64,000 bases of DNA. Source: a virus. Of the stretch, positions 27-54,549 are shown piece by piece. Made by a program: the position numbers and the translations under genes. The DNA lies in IMG/VR virus record IMGVR_UViG_3300028549_001826; one strand, written 5' to 3'. The notes beneath the pieces were generated by a model. That model saw only the letters and a list, made by a program, of their open reading frames with translations. It was not told where the DNA came from and searched no databases. Position 1 is the first letter of the stretch. Every line of letters starts with the position of its first letter.

Positions 27-698
27 ATGGAAAAACAATTAATTGGTAAAAGACATAGTCACAATGATAAACAAGTTGACTATTGGATACATGTTACAAA
101 TAAGTGTAACTGGTTTTGTGATTATTGTATCGTTGATACACATAATACTAAAGATACACAAATAGAGAATGTTTTAAAAACTATACAAGAAGATGTTAAA
201 GACAATTCGTTTGTATCATTAACAGGTGGAGAAATAGGAACACTTTCTAAAAGCGAAATTGAAAGTATATTTATATTACTTGAATCAAAACAATGTAAAA
301 TTTGTATTGATACTAATGGTTTATTTTTAAGAAAATATTCGGAGTATTATAATAGAGTGTTTGATTACTTTTATCATTGTTCTGAAAAACTAACACTAGA
401 AGAAGATATTTTCAAAGATATATCTGATCCAGAAAATAAATTAACTTTTATGATAGTTGTATCAGATAGTAATTTTGAAAACAGCATTCCTTTCTTAACT
501 AAGTGGAATAATGTATTGTTTCATGTGCATGGAGCTATGACAAATGGAAATGGTGGAAACACTTTGAGTAATAAGTTTGCTTTAAAATTATTTCACGCTT
601 GTCATAAATTGGAAAATGTTAATAAAGAACATCTTACCTATATTATAAATTTGTATGCTGGAAAGAATGAACATGTGTTTATCGACTCAAGAAAATAA
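27..698 (+). CDS. Radical SAM protein
   Basis: CxxxCxxC (CNWFCDYC), LTGGE and DTNG motifs; no C-terminal Cys cluster. TATAAATA at 5-12 upstream. Confidence 0.85.
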   Translation: MEKQLIGKRHSHNDKQVDYWIHVTNKCNWFCDYCIVDTHNTKDTQIENVLKTIQEDVKDNSFVSLTGGEIGTLSKSEIESIFILLESKQCKICIDTNGLFLRKYSEYYNRVFDYFYHCSEKLTLEEDIFKDISDPENKLTFMIVVSDSNFENSIPFLTKWNNVLFHVHGAMTNGNGGNTLSNKFALKLFHACHKLENVNKEHLTYIINLYAGKNEHVFIDSRK

Positions 699-1305
699 TA
701 TAAAATTAAGTATTTTAATACTTACTCATAATCGTCCAATATTGTTTAAGCGATGTTTAAATAGTATATTATCACAAAACTTTAATTGCTCTATAGAAAT
801 ATTAGTTAATAATGATAGCAATGATATAGAAGAGATATCCAATGATATTTTTTCTATAAAATATTTCTATAAATCTTCTAACAATCTATCAGATTTGTAC
901 AAACATTTATTTGATCAAGCAAAAGGCGAATATGTTTATTTTTTAGAAGATGATGATTATTTATATAAAAATTTTGCTTGCATTCTTAATAAATATATAT
1001 TCGAAGATATTGATTTATATTATATGAAGTACAAAAATCCTTATGAAAATAAATATGAAGAGATATCTTTACCAACAATTAATACTCATTTTCAATTATC
1101 TCAAATATTATTTAAAAAAGAGCTTGTAGAAAATAGTTTTCCAGATAATAATTCCTTAGATAATGATTGGAAACTTTTTCAAACAATTATTAATAAAACA
1201 GACAATATAAAACTTATAAACAATATAATGTTTATTCAAACATATGATGGAAAGGATAATATAAGTTTTCCTAAATTTAACAAGGATATTCGATGGAATC
1301 AATAG
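667..1305 (+). CDS. Glycosyltransferase family 2 (GT-A fold)
   Basis: ILILTHNRP..FKRCLNSILSQ, EILVNND and YVYFLEDDD (DxD) motifs. The ORF is open from 655; start placed at ATG 667. Confidence 0.85.
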   Translation: MNMCLSTQENNIKLSILILTHNRPILFKRCLNSILSQNFNCSIEILVNNDSNDIEEISNDIFSIKYFYKSSNNLSDLYKHLFDQAKGEYVYFLEDDDYLYKNFACILNKYIFEDIDLYYMKYKNPYENKYEEISLPTINTHFQLSQILFKKELVENSFPDNNSLDNDWKLFQTIINKTDNIKLINNIMFIQTYDGKDNISFPKFNKDIRWNQ

Positions 1306-2222
1306 AATATATAAAACAGCAAGGATTAGGTCATAAAGTAGATAGATTATATATACATTGGGATATTACAACGCAATGTGAATATAAATGTTCTTATTGT
1401 TATGCTCGAAAAGAATATGAAGATAAATGGAATAGACCAGGCATATGGAAAAAACAATTAAATGTTATTGATGCTTTAAAAGAAAGTACTCTACCTATAT
1501 TTTTAGGACTACTTGGTGGAGAACCAACATCTCATTATAAATATTTTGAACTATTGGATAATCTTGAACAGATAATATTAGTAAACAATGATTCAAGATT
1601 ATATATTACTACAAATGGTAATAAAACAAATGAATTCTTTTTGAAACATAAAAAAGTTAATAAACAATTTTATGTTTTGTTTAGTCTCCATCCTGAGTAT
1701 GTTGATGATACAACTTTTAACCAATTCAAAAATAATATTAGAATAATGCTTGAAAAAGGATATAGAGTAAAAGTTAATGTAATGCTGCATCCATCGAAAC
1801 AGTATTGGGGATTTCTTAGAACTGCTATATTAAGTCTAAACACTTTAGATATAGAAGTTCATCCTCATTATATTTATTCAGATGCTCACAATAGTGTTTT
1901 ATATTCTAAGGATTTTTATGAATTTTTTGAAGAAGCAATTAAAACAAAAGAACCTGAATTTATATTTGAAACAGATGATGATATTTATCTTTTAACTGAT
2001 CAAGATATATTTAAAAACAAATATAATAAATTTAAAGATTGGAATTGTTGGAACAATAATTATGAAATAGATTTGGATTGTAGAATTAATCAATTTTGTT
2101 TTGAAGACAAAAAAGATATAGCTTTGGATTATTTTAAAAATATATCAAGCATTGTTTCAAAAAAATGCCCACATGAGTATTGTAGTTGTGATGGTTTGCT
2201 AAAAATTAAAAAGGAAAAATAA
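1293..2222 (+). CDS. Radical SAM protein with C-terminal Cys (twitch/SPASM-like) module
   Basis: CEYKCSYC, LLGGEP and TTNG; C-terminal CWNN..DCRINQFC..CPHEYCSC. Confidence 0.9.
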   Translation: MESIEYIKQQGLGHKVDRLYIHWDITTQCEYKCSYCYARKEYEDKWNRPGIWKKQLNVIDALKESTLPIFLGLLGGEPTSHYKYFELLDNLEQIILVNNDSRLYITTNGNKTNEFFLKHKKVNKQFYVLFSLHPEYVDDTTFNQFKNNIRIMLEKGYRVKVNVMLHPSKQYWGFLRTAILSLNTLDIEVHPHYIYSDAHNSVLYSKDFYEFFEEAIKTKEPEFIFETDDDIYLLTDQDIFKNKYNKFKDWNCWNNNYEIDLDCRINQFCFEDKKDIALDYFKNISSIVSKKCPHEYCSCDGLLKIKKEK

Positions 2223-3166
2223 TGCATAGTATAGATAGACTTGATATGAAAGTTGAAACATTAATATGTGATCACCATTTTATGTTTGAAATAACAAGAC
2301 AATGCAATATGAGTTGTTCATATTGTTATAAAGATAATAACACTAAAATACCTGATAATAATAAAATAGAATTTTATATGTTTATTAGAAAGATTACAAA
2401 ATTATTAGAAGCTCATCCAAATAAAACTTTTGAAGTTGATTTATTAGGAGGAGAACCAAGTATATCACAATATGCAGTCGAGTATTTTAATAAGTTAATA
2501 ACATTATCAACTATACATAATAATTTAAAATGGATTACCATGACTACTAATGGTCAAGAATTTTTATATAATCATGAAAATCTTTTAAAAACAAATAAAT
2601 TTAAAATTGAAATAACATACCATAACTCTTTGAAAAATATAGACAAATTTATAGAAAATCTTATTAAATATAAAACGAGTTATAATAATGTTATTTTAAC
2701 ATTAAATCTTTTTCCAAAAGGTTTTAATCTTGATAAAATATTGAGAGTGTTATATGTTTGTAAAGAATATGATATTATTGTTACAGTAATGAGTATATTT
2801 TCAGACACAACTATAACCTATTTAGATGAGAATATTTATAAGCCTATTTTTGATTTTATAAATGCTAATAATATGATCAATGATAAAGTAACAGATCAAT
2901 ATGCTTACAAAACAAAAGATTATATTAGAAGAATTCCAACTCGTTGCAAATTAAAAACATTTACTATACTATTTGACGGCACTATTGTATCATCATGTGG
3001 TTATAAATTAAAAGATAAATTAAATATAAAATACAATGAGTATCCTTTTGATGAAGAAATATTATGCAACGCTTCTATTTGTCAAGGAGCGAGTGGTTAT
3101 AATCAGTATTTATTATCTCAAAAAGATTTTAAAGAAGATGAGAAAAATGAGAAAAATAATGCATAA
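2222..3166 (+). CDS. Radical SAM protein with C-terminal Cys module
   Basis: CNMSCSYC, LLGGEP and TTNG; C-terminal CKL..DGTIVSSCG..CNASIC. TAATG overlap with the previous gene. Confidence 0.9.
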   Translation: MHSIDRLDMKVETLICDHHFMFEITRQCNMSCSYCYKDNNTKIPDNNKIEFYMFIRKITKLLEAHPNKTFEVDLLGGEPSISQYAVEYFNKLITLSTIHNNLKWITMTTNGQEFLYNHENLLKTNKFKIEITYHNSLKNIDKFIENLIKYKTSYNNVILTLNLFPKGFNLDKILRVLYVCKEYDIIVTVMSIFSDTTITYLDENIYKPIFDFINANNMINDKVTDQYAYKTKDYIRRIPTRCKLKTFTILFDGTIVSSCGYKLKDKLNIKYNEYPFDEEILCNASICQGASGYNQYLLSQKDFKEDEKNEKNNA

Positions 3167-4136
3167 AATTAAATTAAAACATTCATATGAAATAATGCAA
3201 AATGATAATAAATTGATATTTGGTGCAGAGTATGATTATCAAATAACAATTAGGATAACAGAATTATGTAATATTAAATGCGAGTACTGTGAAGTTAATA
3301 AAGGGAAACCTTACAAATACGATGATATTATAAGGTCTATTACGTTATTAAATAAATTTTTTGATGAAAACAATTTTAATAAAGTCTTATTTTATTTTCA
3401 TGGGGGTGAACCAACTACTCACCCAAAATTATTAGATATTTTAAAATATATCAAAACTAGTCGAGAAAATAATATAATAGAACTTCAGACAAATTTATTA
3501 TCATCCGAATCTTTTCTAAAACAATATTTGAAACACATTGACTTGTTAAGTATATCATATCACTATATGGAATTAGTTAGAGTTAATAAATTAGAATTAT
3601 TTATGAATAATATAAATTATATTGTATCAAATAATTATTACATTGATAAATTAGATATAATGTTAGAAAATGTTTTATATGAACATATAGATATATTTCA
3701 TAATACTATAGAACATTTATTAAAATTACCAAACATAATTAATAGTGAAATGATTTATTTTTACAGTAATTATGATTATAATAATGAAACATCTAAAAAA
3801 CATTTAGAATTTTATAAAAAATATAATAAAACAGAACAATTGTATAAAATTGATGGTGTTGTTTATTCTACTAATGAATTATTTGGTAGAGGGCTAGATT
3901 GTGTTGGTAGTAGATGTGATGCTGGTAAAACTTCTATAATTATGAACGGGAATGGTGATGTTTTTAAATGTGGACAACATTTAATGGAATATTTTCTTAA
4001 CAATAAAGGAAAACCTTTTATAAATATTATCGAAAATGGTTTTAAATCTTTAAATATTTTATATAAAATAGGCACTCGATGCGTATGGGATTATTGTTGT
4101 GGAGATTTTTATTTAAATAAAAATATTAAAGGCTAA
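3159..4136 (+). CDS. Radical SAM protein with C-terminal Cys module
   Basis: CNIKCEYC, FHGGEP and QTN; C-terminal CDAG..NGDVFKCG..CVWDYCC. Start placed at ATG 3159, overlapping the previous stop. Confidence 0.9.
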   Translation: MHKIKLKHSYEIMQNDNKLIFGAEYDYQITIRITELCNIKCEYCEVNKGKPYKYDDIIRSITLLNKFFDENNFNKVLFYFHGGEPTTHPKLLDILKYIKTSRENNIIELQTNLLSSESFLKQYLKHIDLLSISYHYMELVRVNKLELFMNNINYIVSNNYYIDKLDIMLENVLYEHIDIFHNTIEHLLKLPNIINSEMIYFYSNYDYNNETSKKHLEFYKKYNKTEQLYKIDGVVYSTNELFGRGLDCVGSRCDAGKTSIIMNGNGDVFKCGQHLMEYFLNNKGKPFINIIENGFKSLNILYKIGTRCVWDYCCGDFYLNKNIKG

Positions 4137-4138
4137 AT

Positions 4139-4930
4139 ATGAAACAAATAGTTGAGTGGGAATTAGTGTCACATTGTAATTATAATTGCGACTATTGTTT
4201 ATTACCAAAGTATAATTATATCAATGATCAAATTAAAATAAAAGAATTCATACATAATACTTTAAAACCATTTCGAAATGAAGTTTTATTTTGTTTTGGT
4301 GGTGAACCATTTCTACATAAAAATATAAAATTCATAATTGATGAGTTAAATATTGTTAACCAAGTATTTGAAATACAAAGTAATTTAAGTTTATTAAGTT
4401 TAGATAAAATTGAGATACTTAATTTAACGAATTTTAAATTAAATGGCTCAATTCACCCAACACAAATAGATTTAAAAGAAATTATATATAATTTAAAAAA
4501 ATTAATACAATTATCTGAAAAAAATAATATATCTATACAAACAATAGATATAATGTATGTGGGCGAAATTTCTGTCAAATATTATAATATTCTTAAAAAT
4601 CTTTTTAAACTAAATTTTAAACTTACTCCTATCTCGGGATTTTATGAAACAAATAGTTGTGCTAAAACAATAGAATATAATAAATTAAGACATGAAAATG
4701 AATTCAATAACAATATTATTTTTGAAGAAATTATAACACCTGCATATGATATATATAGATCAGAGGTTTGGGAAAAACAATGTCTTGATGAAATAACTAC
4801 ACTCAACCAAGAATGTTATTATAAGAATAGATATTTTTTATTTGATTCAATGTTGAATATAAATAATTGTTGTTATAGAGAGTTCAATACAACAGGAATA
4901 TGTCAACACAGTAAATGTTTTTGGATGTAA
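4139..4930 (+). CDS. Radical SAM protein with C-terminal Cys module
   Basis: CNYNCDYC, FGGEP and QSN; C-terminal CYY..NCC..CQHSKC. Confidence 0.88.
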   Translation: MKQIVEWELVSHCNYNCDYCLLPKYNYINDQIKIKEFIHNTLKPFRNEVLFCFGGEPFLHKNIKFIIDELNIVNQVFEIQSNLSLLSLDKIEILNLTNFKLNGSIHPTQIDLKEIIYNLKKLIQLSEKNNISIQTIDIMYVGEISVKYYNILKNLFKLNFKLTPISGFYETNSCAKTIEYNKLRHENEFNNNIIFEEIITPAYDIYRSEVWEKQCLDEITTLNQECYYKNRYFLFDSMLNINNCCYREFNTTGICQHSKCFWM

Positions 4931-4948
4931 TAAAGGGAAAGGAATCTT

Positions 4949-5806
4949 ATGCAATCATTGCAAAAATTATCTATTAATATAGCGGGAGCGTTTACCTTTA
5001 ACTTTACAGAATTTTTTCTCAAATCGGCAATATATAAAAAATTTAATATAACTGTTTATGATGGAGTTAATAATTGTCAATGGAATGGTGGTAGAATCAA
5101 TAGACCAATTTATATAGATCAAAAAGATATTGAACGATACAATAAATTAGGTATAGCTGTATCTTTAACATTTTCAAATCATATTATAGATTTAAACGAT
5201 GATACAGGACAAACATTATTAAAATGGTTGAATGATTCCCAAATTAAATACGGTATACAAAATGAAATTACTTTAGTTAATGAAGATTTTTTAAAACATT
5301 TGAGATCTAATTATAATTTTATATTGAAATATAGTATAACAGGACATGATTCAAAACAAAAAAATGTAGAAGAATTAAAAGTGTATTATAAAAGATTAGA
5401 ACTTTTATATGATAAAATTGTTCCAAAAATGGAAGATGTTTTCAAAAATGTTTTCTCAAATAATAATAAATATGAATTAATGTTAAATGATACATGTTTA
5501 GAAAATTGTCCATATTATAATGAACATTTTAAGGCTATTAATTTTATAAATAAAAATACACTTATTGATATAAATAATTTATACAATGATAATAAATCCA
5601 TAGAAGAGTGTTGGTTATCAAATTTTGATCCAAATATACCAAATATGAATAATAATTGTGGCATGGATTTTAATGAGAGTATGTTTAAAGAATCACTAAG
5701 TAAAGGTTTTAATTCTTTTAAGATATCAGGTAGAGAGAATAAACAAGAAGATATATTAAATGATATCAAATATTATATAAGGATTTATGATGCTATTGAA
5801 AAATAA
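4949..5806 (+). CDS. U32-family (UbiU/TrhP/RlhA-like) Fe-S protein
   Basis: ELMLNDTCLENCPYYNEH Cys motif, further Cys residues and C-terminal FKISGRE (compare the U32 motif FKIEGR). Confidence 0.65.
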   Translation: MQSLQKLSINIAGAFTFNFTEFFLKSAIYKKFNITVYDGVNNCQWNGGRINRPIYIDQKDIERYNKLGIAVSLTFSNHIIDLNDDTGQTLLKWLNDSQIKYGIQNEITLVNEDFLKHLRSNYNFILKYSITGHDSKQKNVEELKVYYKRLELLYDKIVPKMEDVFKNVFSNNNKYELMLNDTCLENCPYYNEHFKAINFINKNTLIDINNLYNDNKSIEECWLSNFDPNIPNMNNNCGMDFNESMFKESLSKGFNSFKISGRENKQEDILNDIKYYIRIYDAIEK

Positions 5807-6770
5807 ATTAAAGTTAAAACAAAAATTTGAATTAGTTATAAAAAATGAACTAAGCCATTTTTTAAATATAAAGAATGTAAAAGATGTTTCTATAGATATA
5901 CATTATAAAAATCTTGGAGATAATAACGGTAAATTAATTATAGGATATTTTTCTATTATTGAATACAATGGTGAAAAATATAGATTGGTTTTAAAGGATG
6001 AATTGTACCGCATTTATAATGAAGATGTTGAGACAGAAAATATTGAATTGTTTACAAAAGAAATTATTGAGAAAATTATAGAAAATAAAGTGTTATTCAA
6101 AGATATAACAAAGATAAAACCAGAAACATATAACAATAATGATTTATTAAAAAATGAGTTATATAAGATTTATCACAATAAACATTTAAATCTATTACAA
6201 GAATATAGTAAACCATTGAATGATATTAAAAAGATTTCTTTTAATGATAAAGAATTGTTTTATGATTTCTACGATAACCATTTTAACAACATACCACATT
6301 CTCCCGAAGTTTTATTTTCTTCTGAAAATTGTTTATTATTAAAATACTACAATATTAAACAAAATTTAACAATTAAAATATTAGAGAATGATAAAAAACT
6401 GTTTCAGAAATGTTTTGAAATAATAAATGATATAAATAATTATTTTAAACAAAATGATACCTATTTAGTTTTCCCTATATTTAATGTCGAGAATTTTGCG
6501 CAACTAGATGATGACACAATTTTATATATCGATATTGATGGTTTACAGAATAATAATTTTTTAACATATGCTATAGCACTTAGAGAGAATGAAATGAATA
6601 ATGATCAAGAAGTAATAATCGATTATATCCAAGACAATATTTATACAAACATAACTAAGGTAATGTTAGATAATCAGAATACATTCACAGATTTATTAAA
6701 TGTGTCTCCAAATCTCAAATATGTAAATATGAATTTCAATAATTTAACTATACATAATTTACTAGTTTAA
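5787..6770 (+). CDS. Hypothetical protein (weak kinase-like remnant)
   Basis: 327-aa ORF overlapping the previous stop; FNVENF...YIDID loosely resembles kinase catalytic and metal-binding loops. Confidence 0.55.
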   Translation: MMLLKNKLKLKQKFELVIKNELSHFLNIKNVKDVSIDIHYKNLGDNNGKLIIGYFSIIEYNGEKYRLVLKDELYRIYNEDVETENIELFTKEIIEKIIENKVLFKDITKIKPETYNNNDLLKNELYKIYHNKHLNLLQEYSKPLNDIKKISFNDKELFYDFYDNHFNNIPHSPEVLFSSENCLLLKYYNIKQNLTIKILENDKKLFQKCFEIINDINNYFKQNDTYLVFPIFNVENFAQLDDDTILYIDIDGLQNNNFLTYAIALRENEMNNDQEVIIDYIQDNIYTNITKVMLDNQNTFTDLLNVSPNLKYVNMNFNNLTIHNLLV

Positions 6771-7187: not shown

Positions 7188-7363
7188 GTCATTCTCCTAA
7201 ATTTTATTAATAAAGAATCATCATATTCTAACTATTGCTAGTTCTAATACGATGGAATAAGTTATTGATTAGTAACCCAATTCTTTGTCCTCTCGTGACT
7301 TGTAACTGAAATCATTATATCCTATTGTACGGCGTACTTTAAGATACTCTAACTTGTATTCTT

Positions 7364-7430
7364 TCTTTATCTACATATATTATATCTATGGTATCAAGAA
7401 GTATTTCTCAATGGATACCATAGATATAAC
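7364..7430 (-). promoter_or_regulatory. Early promoter/operator module copy 1
   Basis: Minus-strand TTGAGA-N21-TATAAT (-10 at 7379-7384); 16-bp inverted repeat at 7380-7395/7414-7429. Confidence 0.7.
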
Positions 7431-7507
7431 ATGTAATCATCCCTACAACTTACATAACATAAACAACATACCAAACTAATAATTTCGAGCAATAAAGATA
7501 TTCATTC

Positions 7508-7960
7508 CTAAGCTATAAGCTTAGGAATGAATCCTCTTAAGTTAATCTTAGATGATTGCTCACCTTGGATTCTTTGTCCATCATCATTATTGATGATAGT
7601 GTAACTTGTTTTAAATGGTGTCATATATACACCAACTACTTTTCCGCTAACCTTTTTGTGGTCAACATTTATTGTAATATCCTCACCAAGATCTGGTAAG
7701 ATTACACTATTCATTTCTTTTACATTTTCAAATGTAATATTTTCTGCATAGTTTTCAACTGATTCAAATATATCTTCAATTTGAATTTTGTGTTTTTTAT
7801 GTACAACATTTTTTGATGTGTACTCATTTATCATATAATTCATTGTATACGATAGATCATTTCTAATAGTTACTTCGTAACCATCAACTAAACCTTGCAC
7901 TAATTGTGCACCGTCAGTGAACACTACTTGTGTTCCATTTTTAATAACTTTTATTGTCAT
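7508..7960 (-). CDS. Hypothetical early protein
   Basis: 150-aa ORF with GGAG SD, downstream of promoter module 2. Confidence 0.75.
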   Translation of the reverse strand: MTIKVIKNGTQVVFTDGAQLVQGLVDGYEVTIRNDLSYTMNYMINEYTSKNVVHKKHKIQIEDIFESVENYAENITFENVKEMNSVILPDLGEDITINVDHKKVSGKVVGVYMTPFKTSYTIINNDDGQRIQGEQSSKINLRGFIPKLIA

Positions 7961-7984
7961 TTCTTTCTCCGTTTTAATTTTATT

Positions 7985-8056
7985 TTTCTTTGTCTACATA
8001 TATTATATCTATAGTATCATAAGGTATTTCTCAAAGAATTACTATAGATATTACAC
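7985..8056 (-). promoter_or_regulatory. Early promoter/operator module copy 2
   Basis: TTGAGA (8029-8034)-N21-TATAAT (8002-8007) on the minus strand; 12-bp inverted repeat ATATCTATAGTA/TACTATAGATAT. Confidence 0.7.
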
Positions 8057-8115
8057 TAAACAATCCATACATAAACAACTAGCTAATACATATATTAAAA
8101 CAATAAAATGAGGTT

Positions 8116-8139
8116 CTCGTTAAGTTTTTACTTAACGAG
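8116..8139 (-). terminator. Hairpin terminator candidate
   Basis: CTCGTTAAGT-TTTT-ACTTAACGAG, a 10-bp stem overlapping the stop of the 8128-8292 ORF. Confidence 0.55.
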
Positions 8140-8292
8140 GTTACCATACATTTCATCTCTTGACCATTTGTGATCAAGATTATAATCGTCTTCTTCGACG
8201 TCTTTATTTAACGCTGCATCTGAATGCAGCGCATAACCTAATTGTCCAACTACTATTATAAATAGTATTACTGCAATTATTAAATCTTCCAT
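8128..8292 (-). CDS. Small membrane protein (54 aa)
   Basis: Hand translation MEDLIIAVILFIIVVGQLGYALHS...GNLVK; AAGGA SD; not in the ORF track. Confidence 0.55.
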   Translation of the reverse strand: MEDLIIAVILFIIVVGQLGYALHSDAALNKDVEEDDYNLDHKWSRDEMYGNLVK

Positions 8293-8302
8293 TTTGTTTT
8301 CC

Positions 8303-8422
8303 TTATAATAATATATAGTTAGTTATCATATAACCAACTGTAACTGATGCAATTATTTCAATTGCAACTATAACTGTATACCACGCATATATTGCGTTTA
8401 ATTCTGACCTTTTTATTGTCAT
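8303..8422 (-). CDS. Small membrane protein (39 aa)
   Basis: MTIKRSELNAIYAWYTVIVAIEIIASVTVGYMITNYILL; GGAG SD with the same start context as the ORF at 7960. Confidence 0.5.
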   Translation of the reverse strand: MTIKRSELNAIYAWYTVIVAIEIIASVTVGYMITNYILL

Positions 8423-8447
8423 TTCTTTTCTCCGTTTTTGTTTTCTT

Positions 8448-8520
8448 TTCTTTGTCTACATATATGATTTCTATGGTATCTAAATGTATTTCTCAATGAA
8501 TTAGTATAGATATTACATTA
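8448..8520 (-). promoter_or_regulatory. Early promoter/operator module copy 3 (degenerate -10)
   Basis: TTGAGA (8491-8496), GATACCATAGA and ATATGTAGACAAAG are conserved; the -10 position reads AATCAT. Confidence 0.6.
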
Positions 8521-8580
8521 ATAATTTCCATACATACATAAATTATAATAATAAAGCATTAAAAAGTATTAGTAAGTATC

Positions 8581-8610
8581 ATTAGTAAATGGTTATAACC
8601 ATTTACTAAT
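8581..8610. terminator. Perfect palindrome, terminator candidate
   Basis: ATTAGTAAATGGTTA|TAACCATTTACTAAT, 30 bp, covering the stop of the 8593-8694 ORF. Confidence 0.55.
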
Positions 8611-8694
8611 TTTTACTAATGTTTTGTAAGATAACATTTCTGTTAGCACATAAGCCATCAATAAGACAGCTATTATCAATATACTTATTAGCAT
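8593..8694 (-). CDS. Small hydrophobic protein (33 aa)
   Basis: MLISILIIAVLLMAYVLTEMLSYKTLVKISKWL; AAGGA SD; downstream of promoter module 4. Confidence 0.45.
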   Translation of the reverse strand: MLISILIIAVLLMAYVLTEMLSYKTLVKISKWL

Positions 8695-8713
8695 ATTCTT
8701 TCCTTTAATTTTA

Positions 8714-8768
8714 TTTTCTTTATCTACTAATATTATATCTATGGTAATAAAGTTAATTTCTCAGAAAA
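8714..8768 (-). promoter_or_regulatory. Early promoter/operator module copy 4
   Basis: CTGAGA (8759-8764)-N21-TATAAT (8732-8737) with the TACCATAGA box. Confidence 0.65.
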
Positions 8769-8777
8769 ATTTTTAGA

Positions 8778-8916
8778 TAAAAGGCATCCTTTTGGATACA
8801 AGAAAAACAAGTGGATCCTAAATGATGCCTTTTTTCACCGGTCACAAACCCTTATAAACAAAGGGTTTCTCCCTTATAAACCACTGAAAGCATCCAACAG
8901 GATAAAATCGTGTTTT
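8778..8916 (+). repeat. ~135-bp dispersed intergenic repeat, copy A
   Basis: Near-identical to 44058-44195 and to the reverse complement of 15594-15726; ATCC-N4-GGAT boxes at 8784-8799 and 8890-8905. Confidence 0.95.
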
Positions 8917-9022
8917 AACAAATATTCATTAATATAAAAATAAATTTTAACAACAAAGCATCCAAGATGATAAATAATAACATAGAAATTATTATGGATA
9001 GCAAGATAAAAAAGGAATAAAA

Positions 9023-12259: not shown

Positions 12260-12310
12260 TTCGAAAAAAAATAAAAAATTATTTTTTTTAAAAGAAAATT
12301 TCAACATAGA

Positions 12311-12321
12311 TAACAAATATA
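12311..12321 (+). promoter_or_regulatory. Candidate late promoter motif TAACAAATATA
   Basis: 35 nt upstream of the capsid gene; identical 11-mer at 15793-15803 (+) and 54539-54549 (-). Confidence 0.45.
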
Positions 12322-12355
12322 TTGAAACCAAAAAATTATACGAAAAAGGCAAAAA

Positions 12356-13998: not shown

Positions 13999-15528
13999 AT
14001 GCTCCAGACAAAACAATTAGAGTATTATTATAACTATGAAAAGAATACTATAAAGAATACTGTTAATAAATACATGAAAACAAAAGATCCAGAATTATAT
14101 AAGGATATAGATGCTTATATTAAAGATGAAGATATTATTGAGAAGAATATAAAGAATTCTTTTATTATAAAATTTTATTGCTATATACACGAAATAGCTA
14201 TACCAAGATGTAAAAACGAACAATGTAACAATTTTACAATATATCAACAAGGACGATTTAATGATTTTTGTTGTATAAAGTGTTGCAACACATCTAATCA
14301 TAAAAATGATAAGCTAAAAATAACATGGCAGAATAAATCAGAAGAAGATCATCAAATAAAAATAGAAAAGTTTAAAGAGTCTTATAAAAATAATTTTGAA
14401 AACTTTAAAGATAATATTATGAAATCTAAAAAAATTTATAATTTAGATAAATGGAATAATAAAGAATTTATAGAGGAGCATTTTTTAGATGCTAAAAGAC
14501 AATTCAAATTATTTGAATTTATGGATTATTTTAACTGTTGTCAACCAAAAGCTCATAATAAATTAATTGAATTGAATATAAACTATTCTAAAATCAATAA
14601 GATGTATTCTATAGCGGAAAAAGAAGTTGTAACATATATCGATGAACTAATAACCAAATATAATAAACCTTATAAAATCATTGAGAATCATCGAATAAAC
14701 CAGAAGGAATTTGATATATTAATCAAAGAAGATGATAAAATAATTTTAGGTATTGAATACGATGGTTTATATTGGCATAGCTATAGAAAAGACACTCATA
14801 GACCAAAATCATACTATCGATCAAAACATTTAGAAAAAACCGAAATAGCTATTGAGAATGGTTTTCAATTATTACATATTTTTGAAAATGAGTGGAAACA
14901 TCCAGATAAGAGTTTAATATGGAAGAGTATGATTAAGAATAAACTTAATATAACAGATGATAAAATATATGCTAGAAATTGTAGTGTAAGATATGTCAAA
15001 TCATCTGATGCTACTGAGTTTGTAAAGAATAATCATATACAAGGTAAAAACAATAGAGGTGTTATAAAAATAGGCTTATATCATAAGGACGAATTAGTTC
15101 TTATAGGAACATTTGGAACACCTCAATTTGTAAATGACTATAAAAAAGGTTCTTATGAAATTATTAGACTATGTTCAAAATTAGATACCCAAGTTGTTGG
15201 TGGAGCTTCTAAATTATTAGCTTACTTTATTAAAATGTATAATCCAAAACAAATTATATCGTATGCTAATAGACGTTGGAGTGAGGGAGAAGTTTATAAA
15301 CAATTACATTTTACTTTAGATGGAAAAATACCACCCAATAGTTATTATATAGATGTAAATAATTATAATAAGATGTATCATCGAAGAAAATATCAGTCTC
15401 ATATTGTTAAAAATATTCTGAAAGAAAATTATAATGAAAATATATCAAGTATGGATAATGCTGTACAGTCTTTAAATGTTATGGTAATCTGGGATAGTGG
15501 TAATTATAAATTCACATATAATATGTAA
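13999..15528 (+). mobile_element. Hef-like free-standing homing endonuclease
   Basis: N-terminal CxxxxC..CCxxC zinc ribbon; Vsr/PD-(D/E)xK-like EFDI..GIEYDGLYWHS..LLHIFENEW core; C-terminal IYARNC..NHIQG..VVGGASKLL..ISYANRRWS domain. Confidence 0.75.
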
Positions 15529-15593
15529 ATCAGAATTTATCCAAAAGGATACAAAACAACAAAAACAATTTTAAAAATATATGTAAAACCTTA

Positions 15594-15726
15594 AAAACAT
15601 GATTTTATCCAGTTGGATGCTTTCAGTGATATGAAAGGCATAAACCCTTTGTTTATAAGGGTTTAACCCCAGTGAAAAAAGGCATCATTTAGGATCCACG
15701 CGTTTTTCTTGTATCCAAAAGGATAC
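15594..15726 (-). repeat. ~135-bp dispersed intergenic repeat, copy B (inverted)
   Basis: Reverse complement matches copies A and C; boxes at 15605-15620 and 15711-15726, plus an extra box at 15537-15552. Confidence 0.92.
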
Positions 15727-15869
15727 AAAATAGATTACACATATTTTAAAAATATCGGTGCTAAATTTTAATCTAAAAAATTATCATTTAGTTAACAAAT
15801 ATACATTGCATGATTAATTTATTTAAAAATTTAATCATATTTAATCACAAATTTAAAAGGAAAATACAA

Positions 15870-25445: not shown

Positions 25446-25522
25446 TCAAGATATATTTACTATATTTTGATAAACACAAAAATACGTTGAACTCAACAAA
25501 TATATAAATAAAAGGATAAGTC

Positions 25523-39838: not shown

Positions 39839-40864
39839 ATGCAGTATCAAACAGATGATGATGGAAAACTTATTCATAATACTGTATTAAATTTAGAACC
39901 AATTACTTTAGACTATTCACCATTCTCATTAGATAATATCTCATTTTTAAATGGCTTGAAAAAAGGTTGGAGTTCTGTATTTATAAATACAGATGGTCTA
40001 ACTCCAGAGCAATGTTTAGAATTAGTAATAAATTATATGCAAAGTTCAGATTTTTTAAATATTATCAAACAGTATATTAAAGGAAATTCGTTTCCAATTG
40101 ATGCACAACAGACTATAGAGAAATATTTAAAAGATGAGAGAGAATTTTTATTAATTGATAAGTCAAAACTTAATCAAGTATTAAATAATCCTTCAAAAAT
40201 AAATACACTATTAAATGCTTCTGAATTACAAATAATTCAACAACAAGCATTTAATAGAAATATTATTCAAAATTTGTCGAGTAAACTAACTACTTCACAA
40301 ATTACAGAAGTAGTTAAATATAATTTAAATTTTATAGATAAGACTTCATATCAATCTTTATATAATTCCGGTGTTATAAATCAAATACAACAATATATTG
40401 AAACACATCTAGATATAAATAACGAAGATATTGTATTATTGATTAAAGACGAATTATCAACTATTCTAAATAGTCATGTATTTTTACCATATGAAACAGT
40501 AATGAATGTTATTAATAGTCCTTTAAATGTAGGTACAATATTAACAAAAGAACAATTCATTTCTGTTTTGTATAGAGCTGCTTCTAATTTAGCATTTATA
40601 AGTCAAAATGATATAGATGATATTGAAAACTTATATAATAAAAAACAATATAATAAGATCAAAGATATATTTAATAGTTCTGAAATTATATTGATAATGG
40701 AAAATGAATTAAATGAGAAAAAAATCATCTCTAATATGTTGACATTTGATCAAGTTCAACAATTCTTTAACACTTTAAAGAACGAATTTTTTGAAACAAA
40801 TATTTCGTTCAGTCGATTAGATATAACAGATGATGATATAAATTTATGGATCAATGCCGTATAA
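39839..40864 (+). CDS. Hypothetical (putative virion) protein
   Basis: 341 aa between gp6-like and fibre genes; AGGAG SD. Confidence 0.65.
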   Translation: MQYQTDDDGKLIHNTVLNLEPITLDYSPFSLDNISFLNGLKKGWSSVFINTDGLTPEQCLELVINYMQSSDFLNIIKQYIKGNSFPIDAQQTIEKYLKDEREFLLIDKSKLNQVLNNPSKINTLLNASELQIIQQQAFNRNIIQNLSSKLTTSQITEVVKYNLNFIDKTSYQSLYNSGVINQIQQYIETHLDINNEDIVLLIKDELSTILNSHVFLPYETVMNVINSPLNVGTILTKEQFISVLYRAASNLAFISQNDIDDIENLYNKKQYNKIKDIFNSSEIILIMENELNEKKIISNMLTFDQVQQFFNTLKNEFFETNISFSRLDITDDDINLWINAV

Positions 40865-44011: not shown

Positions 44012-44047
44012 ATTTCATTTTGTATCCAATTGGATACAAAATGAAAT
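44012..44047. repeat. 36-bp perfect palindrome centred on a GTATCCAATTGGATAC box
   Basis: ATTTCATTTTGTATCCAA|TTGGATACAAAATGAAAT is self-complementary. Confidence 0.9.
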
Positions 44048-44057
44048 TTCTTGTGTT

Positions 44058-44195
44058 TAAAAGGCATCCTTTTGGATACAAGAATATGCGTGGATCCTAA
44101 ATGATGCCTTTTTTCACAGGTCACAAACCCTTATAAACAAAGGGTTTCTCCCTTATAAACCACTGAAAGCATCCAACTGGATAAAACTGTGTTTT
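44058..44195 (+). repeat. ~135-bp dispersed intergenic repeat, copy C
   Basis: Near-identical to 8778-8916; boxes at 44064-44079 and 44169-44184; extra box at 44237-44252. Confidence 0.95.
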
Positions 44196-44288
44196 TAATT
44201 TTTTACTTCTTTATCTAAAATTGAAATTGCAATAATGCATCCAATTGGATACAAAAATGAGTACAAGAAAAAGATGAGAGAAATCATC

Positions 44289-54538: not shown

Positions 54539-54549
54539 TATATTTGTTA
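54539..54549 (-). promoter_or_regulatory. Candidate late promoter motif TAACAAATATA
   Basis: 28 nt upstream of the gp5-like start; identical to the motif before the capsid and gp26-like genes. Confidence 0.45.

Follow-up and report, generated by a model that had tools for sequence, protein, structure and literature searches.

The window analyzed here is a stretch of viral DNA of 64,000 nucleotides with a GC content of about 25%. Its genes include those for a Gp23-like major capsid protein (MCP) and a prohead protease of the phiKZ-type Peptidase_S80 family, along with virion proteins, an endolysin and a ribonucleotide reductase, and a radical-SAM operon occupies positions 27-6770. The nearest MCPs from cultured phages are those of Staphylococcus jumbo phages, with 24% identity, and the closer homologues are all metagenomic, several lying on contigs of 226-290 kb, which places the window in an uncultured jumbo-phage clade nearer to phiKZ/AR9 than to T4. 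One relative is the 295-kb metagenome contig JACCEC012807761.1 (hereafter JACCEC), whose MCP is 68% identical to that of the window. Its loci L170-L179 contain genes for two Mom-family proteins, ThyX, a PTPS-like enzyme, the anti-CBASS protein Acb1 and more radical-SAM enzymes, and the clade probably hypermodifies its DNA. A late-type motif, (G/T)TAACAAATAT(A), precedes the MCP gene and several other starts in the window by 15-110 nt, in every case co-oriented with the gene; its total in the window (8 against 6) does not exceed chance, and it is kept upstream of the orthologous gene in L174, L180, L001, L176, L182 and L183. The motif resembles the late-promoter consensus of the AR9 non-virion RNA polymerase, AACA-N6-T(A/G) (PMC7598289), and together with the Peptidase_S80 protease it suggests a phiKZ/AR9-like rather than a T4-like phage. 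A four-copy 55-nt repeat at 7362-8769 (75-87% identity), which contains TAGATATAATAT, faces tiny leftward membrane-peptide genes and is an early-type promoter repeat of a different family from the element described below, the first copy of which begins 9 bp past the last of these 55-nt repeats.

Three copies of an intergenic element, A, B and C, lie at 8778-8916 (+), 15594-15726 (-) and 44058-44195 (+) and are 89-96% alike. An unbiased repeat search recovered them as the longest dispersed repeats of the whole window, at the places and on the strands given by the original prediction. Copies A and C match over 106 nt (8811-8916 versus 44090-44195, 96% identity), A and B over 131 nt (8786-8916 versus 15594-15724, 89% complementary), and B and C over 169 nt (15538-15706 versus 44083-44251, 80%). 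The exact box ATCCNNNNGGAT (ATCC-N4-GGAT) is confined to these three loci, where it occurs nine times as had been predicted; 0.46 occurrences are expected in the window (a 20-fold enrichment), and none of 100 shuffles of the window gave nine. A base-by-base check agreed with the predicted distance of 105-106 bp between box1 and box2, the core GTGGATCCTAAATGATGCC and the hairpin AAACCCTT-ATAAACA-AAGGGTTT, and likewise with the broken stem of copy B, in which TTTTGTATCC replaces AAAAGGCATCC, the long stem is lost and box1 has become a perfect palindrome.

The possibility, named with the original prediction as one that would refute it, that the copies are assembly duplicates is contradicted by several observations. 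They differ by substitutions and have unique flanks, the gene order across A and B is that found in relatives, and independently assembled contigs (from a public microbial-mat run that contains 98% of sampled window words and may be where the window came from) extend from each unique flank into the repeat, so the copies are not assembly duplicates. Wastewater, soil and wetland runs contained small shares of the sampled window words and were left aside in judging habitat. The independent contigs break within copies A and B (8869-8898 and 15589-15702), and the summed depth at these breaks is ~2-4x that of the flanks, consistent with a multi-copy repeat in that sample. Inversion between oppositely oriented copies, which had also been suggested, found no support in the conserved A/B gene order or in the independent contigs, where "skips" joints alone were seen and no strand-change joint.

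Anatomy of the unit

The unit is larger than the ~135 bp first described. Every copy has an extra box (box3) 68 bp beyond box2, which brings the functional unit to ~190-240 bp, and the order of parts is box1, 29 bp, core box, T6, hairpin, box2, a 52-bp spacer and box3 (Table 1). A box search allowing one mismatch showed that the invariant core is itself a one-mismatch box, ATCCTAAATGAT. Its centre lies 77 bp from that of box2 in the window copies, and the two together form a 20-bp inverted repeat. The core string is identical in 17 copies on three contigs, an invariance that is partly a search bias since 12 of the 17 were found by searching for the exact core string. The ~40 boxes found across four contigs share the same half-sites with freely varying N4 centres, and their extended consensus is AAAKKYATCC-N4-GGATRMMTTT. 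The box2-box3 spacer is 83-87% AT, compared with 74% for the window, and locus C has a fifth box inside a 36-bp perfect palindrome. Three T residues only follow the hairpin AAACCCTT-N7-AAGGGTTT; a hairpin that pairs box1 with the core and is followed by T6 is present in A and C and absent from B.

Table 1. Positions of the array elements, the homing-endonuclease gene and the late-type motif in the window
Feature	Position	Strand	Remarks
Copy A box1	8784..8799	+	GCATCCTTTTGGATAC
Copy A core box	8811..8835	+	GTGGATCCTAAATGATGCC (one mismatch), then T6
Copy A hairpin	8846..8868	+	terminator-type, AAACCCTT-ATAAACA-AAGGGTTT; loop flipped in L001 paralogue
Copy A box2	8890..8905	+	GCATCCAACAGGATAA; 77 bp centre-to-centre from core box
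Copy A spacer	8906..8957	+	87% AT; contains TTTAACAAATAT (8914-8925), a motif shared with the DNA just 5' of the MCP gene and other late-type genes
Copy A box3	8958..8973	+	GCATCCAAGATGATAA, degenerate; 68 bp past box2
Copy B box1	15711..15726	-	GTATCCTTTTGGATAC, perfect palindrome
Copy B core box	15675..15699	-	with T6
Copy B hairpin	15642..15664	-	
Copy B box2	15605..15620	-	GCATCCAACTGGATAA
Copy B box3	15537..15552	-	GTATCCTTTTGGATAA; 68 bp past box2, 9 bp after homing-endonuclease stop
Locus C palindrome	44012..44047	.	36 bp, perfect; with extra box0 GTATCCAATTGGATAC
Copy C box1	44064..44079	+	
Copy C core box	44090..44114	+	with T6
Copy C hairpin	44125..44147	+	
Copy C box2	44169..44184	+	
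Copy C box3	44237..44252	+	GCATCCAATTGGATAC; 68 bp past box2
Homing-endonuclease gene	13999..15528	+	free-standing, 509 aa; phrog_3339, E 3.6e-83
Late-type motif (G/T)TAACAAATAT(A)	12309-12322, 15791-15804, 25495-25503, 40795-40803, 54540-54548(-), 8914-8927		

With the relatives included, all 21 copies are intergenic, nearly all of them between co-directional or convergent genes. Their orientation to the neighbours is not fixed, the gene on the box1 side leaving the array in 7 cases and arriving in 7. Intrinsic terminators of the neighbouring genes flank locus C, where there is no outgoing gene, and also follow the MCP gene. The motif GTTAACAAAT(A) stands between array and next gene in five lineages, and the usual layout is a terminator, then the array, then a late-type promoter.

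Copies in relatives and their turnover

The count of three is correct for the window but not beyond it. A search for further copies, which the original prediction had called for, found two on the IMG/VR contig L001 from the same sample, at least 16 on JACCEC and one on L180 (MCP 70% identical), the last with one change in the core. The L001 copies are convergent with a common central box3. No genes are shared between L001 and the window. In the public run that contains the window, a loose end matches the left flank of one L001 copy, and L001 is thus probably a further piece of that same phage population. Its convergent pair (1815-2190) stands directly upstream of a 726-aa gene (2276-4456) with a weak N-terminal match to T4-type large terminases (E 4e-4). 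On JACCEC, 12 exact-core copies extend from 39 kb to 294 kb, and a profile search added four partner copies with the variant core GGGGATCTTATAGGATAC; the loci number about a dozen, 22-46 kb apart over 295 kb. Seven of them, like L001, are convergent pairs sharing box3. Exact convergent pairs are those of L001, L172 and L175, and four pairs combine a main and a type-2 copy around the common box3. In L177 three boxes stand in tandem 41 bp apart (1391, 1432 and 1473; region 1391-1490) and in L178 two stand 66 bp apart (1745 and 1811; region 1745-1850), with a variant-core box (AAAGTTATCCTATAGGATAC...) 28 bp on in both, which shows that boxes multiply as tandem duplicates, in L177 with a unit of about four helical turns.

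Outside this clade, a search of 185,579 prokaryote genomes did not find the core 21-mer, and a megablast of 8 kb gave no match among 50,697 phage records. Shorter probes were set aside. The bare palindrome TGTATCC-N4-GGATACA had 119+ single matches in unrelated viral contigs, as by chance, and CTGAAAGCATCC-N4-GGAT matched 38 unrelated loci, with the element itself in L001 only. The hairpin 21-mer AACCCTTATAAACAAAGGGTT was dropped as evidence of homology. Exact copies occur in 10 unrelated viral contigs (L005-L013) and 43 unrelated bacterial or archaeal ones (L186-L228), against a naive expectation of ~1, usually with an A-run and a T-run around them and in many cases directly downstream of a tRNA gene, and we read it as a convergent, generic intrinsic-terminator hairpin. 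One of the unrelated viral contigs, the GC-richer L013, carries three clusters (860-930, 2480-2840 and 4240-4570) that resemble an iteron-rich origin or regulatory region; they consist of 2-5 CCCTTTRTTTATAAGGG hairpins, which face both ways and alternate with ATGCATA and AAATGTCC repeats.

Some positions are conserved. The array 3' of the MCP gene (copy B) occupies the same place in JACCEC (L174) and L180, at MCP identities of 68-70%, and copy C probably has its counterpart in the JACCEC copy of L179. Relatives with an MCP of 54-57% identity have another palindrome, ACGATCTTTAAAGATCGT (GATCT-TTAA-AGATC), in this intergenic position, the kind of turnover to be expected of a protein and site that co-evolve. 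Copy A, in contrast, is 96% identical to C, yet L180, L181 and JACCEC (L174) lack it at the orthologous site, which fits a recent gain or a recent conversion; these empty sites amount to an insertion polymorphism of the kind looked for in MITEs. The window and L001 copies form one structural subtype and the JACCEC copies others, and window copy B is closer to A and C than to its positional orthologue in JACCEC. Such sharing of subtypes despite conserved positions indicates that copies are homogenised within a genome.

This evidence divides on the non-autonomous mobile element that the original prediction had offered as one possibility. The absence of copy A from L180, L181 and JACCEC and the concerted evolution within a genome speak for it, whereas no target-site duplication or transposase was found and the positions of B and C are kept in relatives. 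The lack of a target-site duplication had already been remarked in the window, and none is seen beside A or around the L001 and JACCEC pairs, the palindrome simply extending in these flanks. Copy turnover has the look of recombination or gene conversion, not of transposition. One of five window-type copies and four of 12 from JACCEC carry the 7-nt hairpin loop as its reverse complement, whatever the subtype downstream. Flipped loops differ only between paralogous copies, and a second hairpin behaves likewise; loop flips of this kind are a signature of template switching in quasi-palindromes.

A homing-endonuclease gene separates the MCP gene from copy B. JACCEC and L180 lack it in that position and L182 and L183 have it, and homologues adjoin box arrays in L172 (JACCEC), L182 and L183, making four contigs with the window. 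Two JACCEC paralogues (L172:2618-4108 and L172:5471-7516) adjoin another array. The product of 13999-15528 has a weak match to the Vsr-type REase_MTES_1575 family, and its homologues carry DUF7487.

Helical phasing and the level of recognition

Five structural variants of the unit, with differing middle segments, place the core box and box2 at centre-to-centre distances of 77, 87, 98, 108 and 119 bp. These distances share a phase of 0.29-0.33 turn (R=0.989), a tightness equalled by 0.01% of random sets, and two distant relatives (76 and 96 bp) have the same phase (Rayleigh p=4e-4 with these included). The box2-box3 distance is 68-71 bp in all subtypes, with a spacer sequence that is only ~60-80% conserved. 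The ten helical turns originally noted between box1 and box2 thus describe the window-type variant only; the conserved phase is the one between core box and box2. A constraint on the face of the helix is sensible only for proteins on double-stranded DNA, and this favours recognition at the DNA level, by a protein, over an RNA fold, as the original prediction had proposed from the broken stem of copy B.

We consider it highly improbable that the element is a small structured RNA or acts at the RNA level as a bidirectional terminator or attenuator. Each copy does fold more stably than shuffled sequence, whichever strand is taken (z -2.8 to -4.6), as is expected of any inverted repeat; the box1:core hairpin of A and C sits between A4 and T6 like a bidirectional terminator, and hairpins like the central one, a generic terminator type, adjoin T-runs in 43 unrelated bacterial contigs. 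The folds differ between copies, however, A and C pairing box1 with the core and B the core with box2, and a consensus fold of 17 copies (RNAalifold, -3.8 kcal/mol) contained 12 pairs, invariant or changed on one side, and no compensatory change. The stems are conserved in sequence and not in pairing: positions just outside ATCC/GGAT do not co-vary, and GCATCC...GGATAC, with a C-A mismatch, is common. The hairpin flips its orientation, neighbouring genes have terminators of their own, and helical phasing would be meaningless for RNA. The whole window had no match to Rfam 15 at gathering score; the best hit of a local scan (E<=10) was mir-337 (E 0.28, 18.2 bits against a gathering score of 80). 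A likeness to a CRISPR repeat was rejected (CRISPR-DR8, E 1.9, 15 bits against 39), and a search for tRNA and tmRNA genes found none.

Candidate functions and known systems

The explanation we prefer, at a little short of even confidence, is that the element is a cis-acting DNA module and not a gene, namely a dispersed, phased protein-binding array at operon boundaries. Such an array would comprise three to five imperfect palindromes (up to eight in relatives) alternating with A/T tracts, a terminator-type hairpin and the AT-rich spacer. We infer a sequence-specific dimeric protein, phage- or host-encoded, that would bind the boxes; because the core-box2 distance changes only by whole helical turns, dimers on these two sites may touch, looping or wrapping the intervening 60-100 bp. 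Every array is placed between transcription units. Typically an operon's terminator precedes it and the late-type promoter of another operon follows; some arrays stand between convergent operons. For this reason a boundary or regulatory nucleoprotein complex is the role that we think most likely for the module, at well below even confidence. The terminator-array-promoter layout also favours it. In that role the complex could serve as an insulator, roadblock or operator effective in either orientation. Homologous recombination would keep the copies alike, add or remove them, and let the homing-endonuclease gene invade. Against a boundary role, locus C has no outgoing gene and the operons flanking it are already terminated, so that a boundary would be redundant there, and other late-type promoters of the window (MCP, 25523 and 54511) have no array. 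The phasing fits an origin or partition complex equally well, and the want of an outgoing gene at locus C keeps such promoter-independent roles (origins, partition or condensation) alive.

No protein with a helix-turn-helix, ParB, recombinase or regulator domain was found with Pfam and PHROGs among ~45 of the ~60 window ORFs of >=80 aa and 81 ORFs of relatives; most of these ~125 proteins match no family. Nor did a scan for sigma-70 promoters find any within 8778-8916 or 44058-44195. Several known sites were compared by eye and rejected. DnaA boxes have a consensus with a CACA end. The present boxes share with TTATCCACA-type 9-mers only TTATCC/GGATAA or ATCCAC, and their constant part is the ATCC-N4-GGAT palindrome, not the CACA end, so they do not form a DnaA-box cluster. 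MotA boxes and T4 late boxes fit poorly, and the likeness to IHF and Fur boxes is partial only.

It is unlikely that the arrays are the multiple replication origins of the clade, with an initiator that binds the boxes and a phased complex that strains and opens the AT-rich spacer; convergent pairs with a common central box would then resemble the herpesvirus oriS/oriL. A fuller version of this idea seems to us just as unlikely as the simple one: that the arrays are origins or combined origin/boundary elements of an uncultured phiKZ/AR9-related clade, in which initiator and box co-evolve and the arrays form a dozen phased clusters, often ~500-bp convergent pairs, with ATCC-N4-GGAT in one branch and GATCT-TTAA-AGATC in another. 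The 52-bp spacer, 83-87% AT and conserved in length while its sequence drifts, next to initiator-type repeats is an anatomical resemblance to an origin. There are several helically phased sites, about a dozen loci 22-46 kb apart on the 295-kb genome, whose position is conserved across the clade and which are independent of gene orientation, and the exact convergent pairs of L001, L172 and L175 and the four main/type-2 pairs with a common box3 point the same way. At least 12 origins would nevertheless be many, copy A is dispensable in relatives, and no initiator gene is adjacent, the sole primase-helicase-like gene seen (DUF5906) ending ~2.2 kb from an array. Copy B lies within a 35-kb run of co-oriented genes and is not marked by a step in GC skew, a criterion of little power in phages. 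The packaging site that the original prediction had named beside the origin found no support. Sites without a promoter to regulate, such as locus C, would suit dispersed centromere- or condensation-type sites for a ParB/KorB/SopB/Noc-like protein that organises or segregates the large genome and may silence nearby promoters. Palindromes of 16-24 bp at about a dozen dispersed loci are in keeping with this, as are the tandem 41-bp box arrays of L177, which resemble sopC-type repeats. We regard it as very unlikely, since neither a ParB-family nor a partition ATPase domain was found in the ~125 ORFs covered (one 64-kb window and ~1/3 of a related genome).

The signs of turnover could be taken to mean that the element is a selfish or neutral MITE- or BIME-like repeat, spread and homogenised by recombination or endonuclease-driven conversion and of no use to the phage except as a recombination substrate; we judge this to be quite unlikely. 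Copy A is absent from L180, L181 and JACCEC yet nearly identical to C, window copy B resembles A and C and not its JACCEC positional orthologue, the 20-bp inverted repeat of core and box2 is like a terminal inverted repeat, homing-endonuclease homologues stand beside arrays at different genome places in four contigs, and the flipped hairpin loops are a template-switching signature. No target-site duplication or transposase accompanies these features, however, and the positions of B and C are conserved across lineages. Arrays also persist at the same place in distant relatives with another box sequence. Neutral decay would not preserve whole-turn spacing and a box2-box3 distance of 68-71 bp, and the conserved phasing and spacer length make a purely selfish reading hard to square with the data.

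Jumbo phages related to phiKZ/AR9 carry out transcription and replication on their own, and few of their origins, unit boundaries and regulators have been described. In a clade without a cultured member the arrays offer a handle, consisting of a defined 24-bp site, an invariant core, a phasing rule and natural box variants across the clade; the variants and the phasing rule could serve to identify the binder. A homing-endonuclease gene has lodged beside the arrays repeatedly.

In logic the arrays resemble KorB operators, sopC-like sites, oriS/oriL and BIMEs, but no full match to any of these was found. The KorB operators (OB) of IncP plasmids, the sopC-like sites of N15 and Noc sites are dispersed, are bound by dimers and can act at a distance. 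As in these systems, one palindrome recurs here at about a dozen intergenic places, some near promoters and in either orientation; the present sites differ in forming phased clusters of three to eight with conserved linkers and not single operators, and in that no ParB-family protein was found. The oriS and oriL of herpesviruses are palindromic origins, and T4 oriF and oriG have a MotA-type middle promoter. Inverted boxes around an AT-rich spacer, several per genome, and convergent pairs forming large palindromes recall these origins. The window arrays, whose likeness to an origin is one of sequence anatomy, lack the MotA-type middle promoter. The BIME/REP elements of enterobacteria and MITEs are mosaic palindromic intergenic repeats associated with a RAYT or transposase. 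The arrays are like them in palindromic mosaic structure, alternating orientation, conserved linkers, frequent location at operon ends, concerted evolution and presence/absence polymorphism, and unlike them in low copy number and in that no RAYT, transposase or target-site duplication was found; the helical phasing, too, points to a protein complex under constraint.

Among described phage elements the closest are the PeSL (promoter-early stem-loop) cassettes of T4-type phages, which join a sigma-70 early promoter to a GC-rich terminator stem-loop and cluster in hyperplastic regions (PMC2839356, PMC4122927). Like PeSLs, the arrays are short composite intergenic repeats with a stem-loop, dispersed in a large phage genome, and they may act as substrates of homologous recombination that adds or removes DNA and are associated with variable genes. 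The gain or loss of copy A relative to L180, L181 and JACCEC and the endonuclease beside B would be of this type, though no recombinant junction was observed directly. They differ from PeSLs in that the unit carries no sigma-70-like promoter, the early-type repeat at 7362-8769 being a different family, and in being built on a repeated, phased 16-24-bp palindrome that is also placed between conserved structural genes. With the arrays, large phage genomes may have, besides the PeSLs, another kind of dispersed recombination substrate, one without a promoter.
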